IMG/VR virus record: IMGVR_UViG_2698536355_000012
Span: 1 to 16,062 of that record
Source of the DNA: a virus
Lineage: Duplodnaviria; Heunggongvirae; Uroviricota; Caudoviricetes
DNA: 16,062 nucleotides
Reading direction: 5' to 3' (one strand)
The notes under the pieces were generated by a model, which saw only the letters and a program-made list of their open reading frames with translations, made no database searches and was not told the DNA's origin. The translations under genes and the position numbers were made by a program. Positions 7,201 through 8,063 of the stretch are shown in pieces (position 1 is the stretch's first letter; the number at the start of each line of letters is the position of its first letter).

Positions 7201-7262
7201 GATTGAATGTACCTTTAGTTACCTTGATGGTCAAGTGTGAAGTGTACCTAATGTTACCTTTA
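7201..7262 (-). promoter_or_regulatory. PL-like promoter with two operator repeats (OL)
   Basis: Minus strand reads TTGACC (plus 7229-7234), 17 nt spacer, TACATT (plus 7206-7211). Two 18 bp direct repeats TGTACCTnnnGTTACCTT at 7208-7225 and 7243-7260 flank and overlap the promoter; a third copy lies in the cI-cro intergenic region. Confidence 0.55.
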
Positions 7263-7266
7263 GGGG

Positions 7267-7296
7267 CAAAAAAATAGCCAAAGGTAACTTTGGCTA
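7267..7296 (-). terminator. Rho-independent terminator downstream of the repressor gene
   Basis: On the minus strand a 9 bp stem (7275-7283 pairs with 7288-7296, loop GTAA) is followed by a run of seven T (plus A7 at 7268-7274), 15 nt after the cI stop codon. Confidence 0.7.
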
Positions 7297-7310
7297 CATA
7301 TCTGGGGGGG

Positions 7311-7970
7311 TTAAATGTTCTGGGTTATTTGGACGACTTTGCCGACAATTCGGCAGTTTCCGTCAATTTGGATAGGCTTGAAAGCTGGGTTAAGTGGCAT
7401 GAGATAGGCGAATGGGCTATCCCACACTAATTTTTTTACAGTCGCTTCGGTAGAGCCTTCCAGTGTGGCAACGACTATTTTCCCGTAAAGATCATCAATT
7501 TGCCCGAAATGTGGTTCAACGATAACAATGGAACCTTCTGGAATTGATGGCAATCCATGAGGGTTAGTCATTGACTCTCCGCGGACCACTAACCCGAAAA
7601 CCTCTTCAGATACATTAGCTGTAGTTTGTGTCCATGCAATCACGTCTGTAAGCCTTGAACTGGCGTAGGTTTCTGTCCATAGACCAGCCTGAACGGCTGA
7701 TATAATAGGCACTGCTGTTGGCGGCTTAAGGAAGGGGACTAATTTGATATCATCAACGTCAGCATCTCCTTTGCCATAGAGAATCCATTCCGGGGTTACC
7801 TGAAGTACACCAGCAAGTTGGTGTAAATTCTCACCATCCGGCTTCGTTGTTCCATTCTCCCATTTCGTTACAGACACGCGACTGACCCCAAGCTTTTTGG
7901 CAAGGGTAAGCTGAGTCATATCGAGCTGGACTCGACGCGAACGAATACGGTCTTTCATCTCTGTTTTCAT
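7311..7970 (-). CDS. cI: CI-type repressor (P22 C2-like; HTH plus S24 LexA-like autopeptidase domain)
   Basis: 219 aa. N-terminal HTH (QLTLAKKLGVSRVSVTKWENG), C-terminal GESM (Ser) and VKKL (Lys) in S24 peptidase positions. Overall pattern closely parallels recalled P22 C2 (PIIS.V.AG.W, GDSM, PEG, ATVKKLV, NGNC.I.G.VV). Confidence 0.9.
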   Translation of the reverse strand: MKTEMKDRIRSRRVQLDMTQLTLAKKLGVSRVSVTKWENGTTKPDGENLHQLAGVLQVTPEWILYGKGDADVDDIKLVPFLKPPTAVPIISAVQAGLWTETYASSRLTDVIAWTQTTANVSEEVFGLVVRGESMTNPHGLPSIPEGSIVIVEPHFGQIDDLYGKIVVATLEGSTEATVKKLVWDSPFAYLMPLNPAFKPIQIDGNCRIVGKVVQITQNI

Positions 7971-8063
7971 GTAACCAATGTTACCTCTTTTGATGGTAAC
8001 TGTTGTTTGCTATTTAATGTACCTTTTGTTACCTTGTGGTGCGTAAGGTAACTAGGAGGAATC
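7971..8063. promoter_or_regulatory. Divergent immunity control region (OR with PR/PRM)
   Basis: 93 bp AT-rich intergenic between divergent cI and cro. Contains palindromic half-sites GTTACC (7980-7985) and GGTAAC (7995-8000), a third 18 bp operator repeat at 8018-8035, GGTAAC at 8047-8052, and the cro RBS AGGAGG at 8054-8059. Exact -10/-35 assignments not resolved. Confidence 0.6.

Follow-up and report, generated by a model that had tools for sequence, protein, structure and literature searches.

A P22-type immunity switch with its own predicted operator specificity in an Escherichia coli lambdoid prophage

The immC region of phage P22 is the closest described counterpart of the locus considered here, and lambda follows the same switch logic. 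In P22, the repressor gene c2 and cro are divergent, the operators are 18 bp long (7+4+7), OR3 abuts the repressor ATG, and the OL operators lie directly after c2, with a hairpin immediately past the c2 stop codon and no gene between. The annotated P22 operators have centres 25 bp (OR3-OR2), 23 bp (OR2-OR1) and 35 bp (OL1-OL2) apart. Phage 21 shares the specificity of P22, and the operators of both P22 and imm21 carry the half-site ATTTAAG. Lambda likewise has a tripartite OR; its operators are 17 bp long, spaced ~23-25 bp apart in OR, and rexA and rexB lie between cI and OL, with OL and OR ~2.3 kb apart.

Against this background, positions 7201-8063 of the window (the whole 16,062-nucleotide stretch that was analysed, from IMG/VR record IMGVR_UViG_2698536355_000012) can be read from sequence comparison, with high confidence, as a lysis/lysogeny switch of the immC type, carried by an E. 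coli lambdoid prophage and with an architecture homologous to that of P22 (Table 1). The sequence-only reading had called an immunity region here and the gene content agrees, as an HTH_3 plus Peptidase_S24 gene and a P22_Cro gene are followed by a CII-like gene, the next gene of the PR operon. The sequence-level constituents of a lambdoid P22-type immC region were found, namely divergent genes (separated by 93 bp), a repressor with HTH and S24 domains, a tripartite OR, and an OL lying over the leftward early promoter. As an immunity switch, the locus is an ordinary further case of the well-known repressor/Cro type. Its own operator sequence is the new part: inside the known P22-like architecture, the predicted operator specificity is distinct and uncharacterised.

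Table 1. Features of the switch and of the adjoining leader, with coordinates in the window.
Feature	Position	Strand	Details
Structured leader RNA element (~70 nt)	7122-7195	-	Own covariance model 95 bits; 5' end of predicted PL transcript, adjoins switch
PL	7206-7234	-	Promoter scan; -35 TTGACC (7234-7229), 17 bp, -10 TACATT (7211-7206)
OL1 ATGTACCTTTAGTTACCT	7207-7224		28.2 bits; overlaps PL -10; conserved in 22/24 loci
OL2 GTGTACCTAATGTTACCT	7242-7259		26.3 bits; 8 bp upstream of PL -35
Intrinsic terminator of cI transcript	7267-7297	-	Terminator scan; 10-pair stem 7297-7274, then TTTTTTT (U7)
Third OL-side operator-like site ATGTAGCCAAAGTTACCT	7282-7299	-	22.5 bits; within terminator hairpin
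cI-type repressor gene	7311-7970	-	219 aa; Pfam PF01381 (HTH_3) and PF00717 (Peptidase_S24); phrog_4
OR3 ATGTAACCAATGTTACCT	7969-7986		28.0 bits; overlaps cI start codon and putative PRM -10
Putative PRM -10, TAACAT	7978-7983	-	Positional homology to annotated P22 PRM -10 inside OR3
PR, two competing candidates	7990-8035	+	Position in P22 versus conservation
Putative OR2 (weak) TGGTAACTGTTGTTTGCT	7994-8011		4.8 bits; conserved in 24 loci
OR1 ATGTACCTTTTGTTACCT	8017-8034		28.7 bits, strongest operator; covers PR -10/+1 region
cro	8064-8261	+	65 aa; P22_Cro, Pfam PF14549, E 3e-23; AGGAGG upstream at 8054-8059
CII-like activator gene (CP76/YmfL family)	8290-8856	+	Pfam PF06892; phrog_101; PGAP name in E. 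coli C3728

The closest solved relative of the repressor's N-terminal domain is P22 C2 (1adr, 2r1j), to which the protein is 44% identical over its full length, and the recognition region within this HTH_3 domain reads GVSRVSVTKWE. The C-terminal S24 domain aligns full-length with lambda cI (3bdn, E 6e-22), with Ala95-Gly96, Ser133 and Lys180 falling on the lambda cleavage and catalytic residues, an Ala-Gly, Ser and Lys set common to both proteins. The repressor motifs VQAG, GESM and KKL, which align with VQAG, GNSM and KKL of lambda cI, are invariant across the repressor family. The gene runs from a start codon at 7968-7970 (CAT) to a stop codon at 7311-7313, and E. coli proteins P0001/P0002 match its product at 100% identity; the corresponding locus of E. 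coli C3728 (L062) is 97% identical. Members of the family are spread over Escherichia, Klebsiella, Citrobacter, Kosakonia, Yersinia, Serratia, Morganella and other genera, but are rare in E. coli, where 23 of 5426 complete genomes gave a match.

The 18-bp repeat TGTACCTnnnGTTACCTT described in the sequence-only reading occurs exactly at 7208-7225, 7243-7260 and 8018-8035, always on the plus strand. All three copies hold up as real sites, but the total comes to five or six. They are also co-oriented, as the description "direct repeats" implied, yet each is really an 18-bp imperfect palindrome that is better framed 1 bp to the left, with a half-site A(T/G)GTA(A/C)C, a 4-bp centre (7+4+7) and the consensus A(T/G)GTA(A/C)C-N4-G(T/K)TAC(C/A)T. 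A strong fourth copy abutting the cI start codon (7970-7987 in the frame of the repeat), an inverted copy within the terminator (7281-7298 in the same frame) and the dyad symmetry within every repeat had been overlooked.

In a comparison set of 24 related prophage loci from many Enterobacterales genera, with repressor identities of 62-97% and an invariant recognition helix, OR3, OR2, OR1, OL1 and OL2 are each conserved at a constant distance from the cI ATG and stand out as islands among diverging spacers. OR1 is near-invariant at offset +47 from the ATG, ATGTAACnAATGTTAC of OR3 is invariant, and the OL1-OL2 spacing is held at 34-35 bp. When a weight matrix built with the relatives only (the source of the bit scores in Table 1) was run over the 16-kb window, its top matches were the operator sites scoring 22.5-28.7 bits, against a maximum of 18.8 bits in 100 shuffles. 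The OR centres (7977.5, 8002.5 and 8025.5) are 25 and 23 bp apart and those of OL1 and OL2 35 bp, spacings identical to P22, and OR3 again abuts the repressor ATG. The putative OR2, at 4.8 bits, scores under the chance level and is assigned solely from position and conservation; its invariant right half, GTTTGCT, may double as the PR -35, and its conservation could reflect that hexamer instead of an operator.

GTTACC/GGTAAC hexamers had also been reported from 7980-8000. They are present, at 7980-7985 (minus strand) and 7995-8000 (plus strand), out of 19 in the window against 4.5 expected, but the first is to be read as the right half-site of OR3 and the second as the left half-site of OR2. 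Their combination into a single palindromic operator (GTTACC at 7980 with GGTAAC at 7995) was rejected, because their spacing is unlike that of the GTTACCTT/AAGGTAAC pair at 8028-8052, AAGGTAAC at 8045-8052 is not conserved, and the hexamers fit the two half-sites.

The suggestion that the operator is unlike that of P22 is borne out. Phages P22 and 21 combine the recognition helix SNVAISQ with the half-site ATTTAAG, whereas here SRVSVTK is found with A(T/G)GTA(A/C)C, which places the locus in a different specificity group; lambda operators, too, differ in sequence from the present sites. The SKA5-type repressors (helix GVNRVTVTGWE; 50-52% identity) form an uncharacterised sister group with the same 18-bp geometry, operators 25 and 22 bp apart in OR and 35 bp apart in OL, OR3 near the cI ATG and, as here, a YmfL/CII-like gene downstream. 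They differ in their half-site, ATGTAGG versus ATGTAAC/ATGTACC here, and in having a clear PR (TTGACA, 18 bp, TACATT). Comparison of the immunity groups thus gives helix/half-site pairs of SNVAISQ-ATTTAAG for P22/21, NRVTVTG-ATGTAGG for the SKA5 group and SRVSVTK-ATGTAAC for the present group, the half-site shifting with the recognition helix across all three sister groups. Because the operator half-sites change together with the recognition helix, a distinct immunity specificity is predicted. Based on this co-change, the conserved fixed offsets, the matrix ranking and the P22-equal spacing, the repeats are supported as predicted repressor/Cro operators.

When the operator strings and the core of the leader RNA were searched for in full-text literature, the only matches were unrelated human primers. 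With this locus the P22 C2 family gains an operator consensus and the recognition helix SRVSVTK, which in itself is of modest value. Together with P22/21 and the SKA5-type phages, it makes up a natural three-way helix/half-site series on one fixed scaffold that could be useful for studying the evolution of HTH specificity, for predicting the immunity group of prophages in Enterobacterales genomes and for obtaining orthogonal repressor/operator pairs.

The direct-repeat look of the sites results from a left/right asymmetry common to all of them, the left half being ATGTACC and the right half AGGTAAC. It is very improbable that this orientation should be taken at face value, with repressor subunits sitting head-to-tail on tandem AGGTAAC and AGGTACA half-sites 10-11 bp apart. 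The P2 C repressor does bind direct repeats, the strong sites here are all co-oriented with the same left/right difference (ATGTACC ... GTTACCT), and the bottom strand of every site reads AGGTAAC-nnn-AGGTACA with a period of ~10 bp. However, the repressor carries a P22 C2/434-type HTH_3 domain, and the P22 C2 dimer binds a symmetric 18-bp site (PMC4267663). Relatives with the identical helix have palindromic arms, perfectly so in Erwinia (AGGTAAC-N4-GTTACCT) and in the OR3 of some others (ATGTAAC-N4-GTTACAT). In addition, the site in the terminator has the opposite orientation, the reverse-strand matrix scores 13-20 bits at the same operator positions, and, once the half-sites are pooled, the left matrix and the reverse-complemented right matrix agree at 5/7 positions. 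If the sites are symmetric operators, as preferred here, we conjecture that the asymmetry probably arises from a second role of the left halves, as promoter -10 sequences or as the cI start codon.

Just as improbable is a reading in which the 18-mers chiefly serve promoters or translation, or are sites of the CII-like protein or a host factor, rather than CI/Cro operators. The left halves do coincide with the PL -10 (TACATT) and the cI ATG, and the right halves of OR2 and OR1 resemble -35 and -10 hexamers, respectively. Nevertheless, the full 18-bp pattern, non-promoter half included, occurs at five to six places flanking cI and nowhere else in the 16 kb, and it tracks the recognition helix from one sister group to the next against an unchanging promoter logic. 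Chance matches or recombination scars without function, which have nothing but the shortness of the motif in their favour, are effectively refuted by the eight matches to TGTACCTnnnGTTACCTT with up to three mismatches in the window (0.19 expected; 0/200 shuffles reached eight) and by offsets that hold from genus to genus despite the divergence of the flanking spacers.

A sigma-70-like scan of 6700-8400 returned the leftward PL as its sole site, PR and PRM being missed by the consensus. The left repeat overlaps the -10 of PL and the second lies 8 bp upstream of its -35, in line with the place given to the left pair in the sequence-only reading. TTGAC(C/G/A) between OL1 and OL2 is conserved in relatives, and the -35 region (GGTCAAGTGT) matches the annotated P22 PL in position and is almost identical to it in sequence. 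For PR, the first candidate (TTGATG 7990-7995, 17 bp, TTTAAT 8013-8018) has the P22-like position and a -35 that is not conserved, while in the second (TTGCTA 8007-8012, 17 bp, TACCTT 8030-8035) both hexamers are invariant and match the position of TTGACA/18/TACATT in SKA5-type relatives. PRM would start at about the cI ATG, judged by analogy with the annotated 5' end of the P22 RM transcript 3 nt from the ATG, and no usable SD precedes cI in the sequence. The cI mRNA would then be leaderless, as is the PRM-derived cI mRNA of lambda.

On the left side, a hairpin and U-run begin 13 nt past the cI stop codon, in keeping with the claim of a terminator within 15 nt of the gene, and with a terminator directly after cI there is indeed no room for a moron in the cI transcript. 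The compact order of cI, terminator and OL sets the locus apart from lambda, as was stated, with the terminator straight after cI and OL1 only 810 bp from OR1. It is not unlike P22, whose OL follows c2 directly. A hairpin and U-run follow the cI stop codon in 23 of the 24 relatives, with unrelated stem sequences. The operator-like site within the hairpin is lineage-specific, shared by the window with E. coli C3728 alone, and was ruled out as a conserved OL3 since all other relatives lack it. In P22, OL3 is a standing feature 19-29 bp from OL2, whereas here the third site lies 40 bp off, inverted and in the terminator stem. Perhaps such a terminator-embedded operator may couple OL occupancy, or looping between OL and OR, to the 3' end of the repressor transcript.

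Following the P22/lambda paradigm, repressor dimers would bind OL1/OL2 and OR1/OR2, with the weak OR2 filled cooperatively, and would thereby block PL and PR and probably activate PRM. As the OL1-OL2 spacing of 35 bp is a non-integral number of helical turns, cooperativity at OL is assumed here by analogy with P22. With the PRM -10 inside OR3 and transcription starting at about the cI ATG, yielding the leaderless mRNA, high repressor levels would fill OR3 and shut down cI. Cro, acting on the same sites, would turn off PRM and, at a later stage, PR and PL. Self-cleavage at Ala95-Gly96, triggered by SOS-activated RecA, would lead to induction, and the terminator would keep PRM/PRE transcripts from crossing OL/PL into the early-left operon of the lysogen.

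The switch adjoins a structured leader RNA that starts ~5-10 nt past the predicted PL start and consists of a closing stem (P1), a small hairpin (P2), an invariant 27-nt core and a covarying hairpin (P3). Paired cells make up 90.6% in the alignment and 74.4% in shuffles, and the covariation score is 0.411 versus 0.105, a value that none of 500 shuffles attained; RNAalifold on the MAFFT alignment missed P1, and anchored counting with an explicit structure was needed. Unlike in P22, neither a gene 24/N homologue nor a boxA/boxB nutL was found after PL, and neither PHROG nor Pfam matched the small ORFs between PL and 6354, among which nothing N-like was found. Scanning the entire window and 6800-7320 against Rfam yielded nothing credible; as Rfam has no put model and misses HK022 put, these scans cannot test put membership.

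HK022 putL is a structured element of ~70 nt immediately downstream of PL (PMC9378689). The leader RNA is alike in its length, structure and place right after the early promoter, but has a closing stem around two hairpins instead of two tandem stem-loops, and is present in a single copy with none downstream of PR, unlike HK022 put. BLAST detected no sequence similarity to HK022 put, and the covariance model had no match in the HK022 PL-PR region. Homology to HK022 putL or P22 nutL was rejected, as a 15-nt stretch of P22 boxB (GATGATxCGCTGACA) was all that BLAST matched and the score of the covariance model, 7.6 bits (E 7), was non-significant. Tentatively, the leader RNA could represent an undescribed cis-acting class fed by PL, an N-independent, put-like processive antiterminator acting across the ~850-nt ORF-poor leader beside an uncharacterised immunity specificity. 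If this were true, the leader RNA could matter more than the switch, as it may explain early antitermination in many N-less lambdoid phages, which recent literature has left open (PMC12315714). Over 120 viral contigs and 49 GenBank phages, covering many immunity types, carry the element, which lies at a median of ~111 nt after the stop codon of a repressor-like gene in the IMG/VR contigs. Its carriers include phiNP, ST64B and SfII/SfV/SfIV, N-less phages among which the LLS/ST64B type (PMC12315714) and SfII, SfV and SfIV (PMC3851460) have been reported as such.

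The region around the repressor gene is a lambdoid immunity switch of the ordinary sort; its layout is P22-like, its specificity is uncharacterised, and its conserved sites are, to judge from their sequence, very probably the CI/Cro operators of a P22-type switch. Repeats flank the repressor ORF on the minus strand and a P22_Cro-family ORF on the plus strand, and the three exact 18-bp copies of TGTACCTnnnGTTACCTT described in the sequence-only reading are present on the plus strand at 7208-7225, 7243-7260 and 8018-8035. With up to 3 mismatches allowed, the 16-kb window contains 8 matches where 0.19 would be expected (8 was reached in 0/200 shuffles), the further inexact copies including 7970-7987 (+) and 7281-7298 (-). 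GGTAAC/GTTACC hexamers are in excess (19, where 4.5 would be expected), with clusters at 7218-7288 and 7980-8052. The factual statements of that reading were all confirmed, and its interpretation as an immunity region holds in refined form: the sites are pseudo-palindromes in a P22-like layout and, while the three copies stand, the total is five or six.

The comparison covered 24 related loci: the window, E. coli C3728, 19 contigs from genomes and three phages from GenBank. Throughout this set each repeat stays at a constant distance from the cI ATG even as the intervening spacers diverge, and 3' of cI the relatives carry two sites 34-35 bp apart with a conserved TTGAC(C/G/A) between them. The copies do lie in the same orientation, but they are not direct repeats by nature, as each site, shifted one base left, is an 18-bp imperfect palindrome. 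OR3 in several relatives reads ATGTAAC-N4-GTTACAT and a site in an Erwinia locus reads AGGTAAC-N4-GTTACCT, both with 7-bp arms that are exact reverse complements. Pooled matrices of left and reverse-complemented right halves agree at 5/7 positions (A1, G3, T4, A5, C7) and differ systematically at position 2 (T vs G) and position 6 (C/A vs A). When the window was scored with a weight matrix trained on relatives only, the five top-ranked sites also reached 13-20 bits when read on the other strand; the top score over 100 shuffled windows was 18.8 bits, and the rest of the real window never exceeded 6 bits. Because of the palindromic arms, the matrix agreement and the opposite-strand scores, the direct-repeat appearance is best read as an asymmetry common to dyad-symmetric operators. 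The left half-sites double as the PL -10 (TACATT, OL1) and the cI start codon (OR3), and the left half of OR1 adjoins a possible PR -10; the asymmetry probably stems from this double duty. The OR2 sequence is a weak match, but its position and conservation make a true binding site somewhat more likely than not. In addition, a perfect inverted half-site, AAGGTAAC, occupies 8045-8052, directly ahead of the cro Shine-Dalgarno and 9 bp to the right of OR1, with whose right half it makes up an inverted repeat of 25 bp. It is probably fortuitous, since relatives differ there (AAGTTAAC, TAAGTAA).

Features of the switch and its surroundings; offsets are from the cI ATG, scores are from the relatives-only matrix, and conservation refers to the 24 loci
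Feature	Position	Strand	Offset	Sequence or family	Score (bits)	Remark
First recognisable early-left gene	5983-6354			phrog_204		ST64B sb37 homologue
OL1	7207-7224				28.2	
OL2	7242-7259				26.3	
Terminator-embedded site	7282-7299	-			22.5	
cI-type repressor, 219 aa	7311-7970	-		HTH_3 + Peptidase_S24		
OR3	7969-7986		-1	ATGTAACnAATGTTAC	28.0	invariant; overlaps cI ATG
PRM -10 (predicted)	7983-7978			TAACAT		positional homology to P22
PR candidate (a)	7990-7995, 8013-8018			TTGATG, 17 bp, TTTAAT		P22-like position; -35 not conserved
OR2	7994-8011		+24	nnGTAACTGTTGTTTGCT	4.8	weaker conserved block
PR candidate (b)	8007-8012, 8030-8035			TTGCTA, 17 bp, TACCTT		both hexamers invariant
OR1	8017-8034		+47	ATGTACCTTTTGTTACCT	28.7	near-invariant
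cro	8064-8261	+		P22_Cro family		
CII-like gene, after cro	8290-8856			CP76/YmfL		

By sequence, P22 C2 is the closest solved structure to the N-terminal domain of the window repressor, while the C-terminal domain aligns with lambda cI; P22 C2 and the phage 21 repressor each share 44% full-length identity with it. The C2 dimer binds an 18-bp site whose central 4 bp are uncontacted (PMC4267663). Centre spacings, measured by script and taken for P22 from the operators annotated in its genome record, are 25 bp for OR3 to OR2 and 35 bp for OL1 to OL2 in P22, the window and the SKA5 group of sister prophages alike, and 23, 23 and 22 bp respectively for OR2 to OR1. P22 also places its -35 TTGACC between OL1 and OL2, inside GGTCAAGTGT, which is likewise found in the window, and its OR3 abuts the c2 ATG. 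On this common scaffold, recognition helix and half-site differ from group to group: VSNVAISQWE with ATTTAAG in P22 and phage 21, VNRVTVTGWE with ATGTAGG in the SKA5 group (about 50% identical), and VSRVSVTKWE with A(T/G)GTA(A/C)C in the window's group. Such co-variation across three sister groups points to the sites being the repressor's own operators and to a separate immunity specificity, as had been proposed, and is the strongest computational argument for both. The recognition region GVSRVSVTKWE is invariant among all repressor relatives at 62-93% identity, which are spread over Enterobacterales. The window itself is an E. coli prophage; E. coli proteins match its repressor at 100% identity, and 7042-8300 is carried by E. 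coli C3728 at 97% identity. Repressors more than 60% identical occur in only seven records of the GenBank phage set, all uncharacterised, and a full-text literature search for the operator strings returned nothing relevant. ATGTAC/GTACAT-rich repeats in the OL/PL region of HK022 (4330-4400, minus strand; AAATGTACTATTGGTACTTTACAT ... AAGTACAT) superficially resemble the left half-site of the window, but the HK022 repressor was not recovered as a cI relative and the likeness probably arose by convergence on a GTAC core.

The single terminator-like site in the scan, a hairpin at 7297-7274 (-) followed by T7, starts 13 nt past the cI stop, in line with the earlier limit of 15 nt. A hairpin and U-run follow the cI stop in 23 of the 24 loci with stems unrelated in sequence, indicating that terminator function is conserved and sequence is not. 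There is indeed no room for a moron after cI, but this is not unusual: in P22 a hairpin right after c2 is followed by the OL operators without an intervening gene. In a lysogen the terminator likely prevents transcripts from PRM and PRE from running on into the early-left operon. Within its stem-loop lies a strong operator-like site in inverted orientation, ATGTAGCCAAAGTTACCT (7299-7282), 40 bp from OL2 and restricted to the window and E. coli C3728 among the loci compared; a lineage-specific third OL operator is a probable, if evenly balanced, reading of it. The Mangrovibacter (L007) and Celerinatantimonas (L017) loci have a full OR and no OL pair in the 200 bp searched past the cI stop, and the L007 hairpin has no U-run. 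This suggests that genes (morons) were inserted between cI and OL in these lineages.

A scan of 6700-8400 returned one sigma-70-like site, the leftward TTGACC (7234-7229), 17 bp, TACATT (7211-7206), and no other. In P22 the RM transcript begins 3 nt from the c2 ATG; by positional homology the cI mRNA of the window would be essentially leaderless, which fits the lack of a usable Shine-Dalgarno before cI. In the case of PR, the hexamers of candidate (b) correspond to a clear TTGACA/18/TACATT promoter of SKA5-type relatives, and with either candidate the -10/+1 region lies under OR1 and the -35 under OR2. By analogy with P22 and lambda, repressor dimers on OL1/OL2 and OR1/OR2 would shut PL and PR, the weak OR2 presumably being filled cooperatively, and occupation of OR3 would shut PRM. 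Cro would act through the same sites, and RecA-stimulated cleavage of the repressor at Ala95-Gly96 (catalytic Ser133, Lys180) would lead to prophage induction.

Over about 850 nt from PL to the first recognisable early-left gene (6355-7200, minus strand) there is no credible ORF and no ORF with a Pfam or PHROG match. ST64B has an unannotated gap of 815 bp in the corresponding position, to which window 6907-7194 is 77% identical. An untranslated leader of this length would be expected to be Rho-sensitive. At the very 5' end of the predicted PL transcript, within its first ~75 nt (minus strand, 7195-7122), lies a conserved, structured RNA element of about 70 nt, CAGCGAAC-AGGCAGGAUGCCCACGAAGUAGCCGCC-GGUGGCAUACGAAUAACCGG-AUGA-UUCGCUG, a more unusual object than the switch. 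Its parts are the closing stem P1, a mini-hairpin (GGC/GCC), an invariant core of 27 nt and the covarying hairpin P3, whose loop reads GGCRUAUGAAGN. Compensatory changes are plentiful in the closing stem and second hairpin of 120 unique copies, and in a 45-sequence alignment 90.6% of cells are paired (74.4% in shuffles) with a covariation score of 0.411 against 0.105 shuffled (0/500 as high) and 0.03-0.08 in slid controls. An Rfam search gave no match. With a covariance model built here, one copy each was found in the window and ST64B, and HK022 and P22 gave no hit; the element has no similarity in sequence to HK022 putL. Five relatives (L001, L002, L005, L011, L022) instead have a third OL operator where the element would sit, 32-34 bp left of OL1 and on the downstream side of the PL start, at -135 to -122 relative to the cI stop, the opposite of the arrangement in the window.

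At least 120 IMG/VR contigs carry an 18-nt core of the element, and the element itself is present in 49 GenBank phages with many different immunity types, including ST64B, phiNP, SfII, SfV, SfIV, ZF40, mEp460, mEp237, SPN3UB and Pantoea AH07, with no RNA annotation of it in any of the 49 records. In contigs fetched by the core alone, it lies a median of ~111 nt downstream of a repressor-like gene, and the many different N-termini of these genes (at least 26) mark it as an early-left-operon start module independent of immunity type. N is reported to be missing from SfII, SfV and SfIV (PMC3851460), and put-like antitermination has been suspected in LLS/ST64B-type phages (PMC12315714). The element is a tentative candidate for a put-like or other N-independent antiterminator. 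Many IMG/VR contigs (e.g. L100, L091, L069) continue with a hairpin, AAGCGCCCUACAGGACGCUU, and a boxA-like GCTCTTTAACAA, both absent after the element in the window, and some carriers may therefore combine it with a Nus/boxA-type site. Carriers extend to the T5-like Providencia phages vB_PreS_PR1 and PSTCR5 (records H172-H175, 110-118 kb), which implies that the element functions outside lambdoid immunity contexts; in PR1 the core occurs twice, inside an annotated repeat_region.
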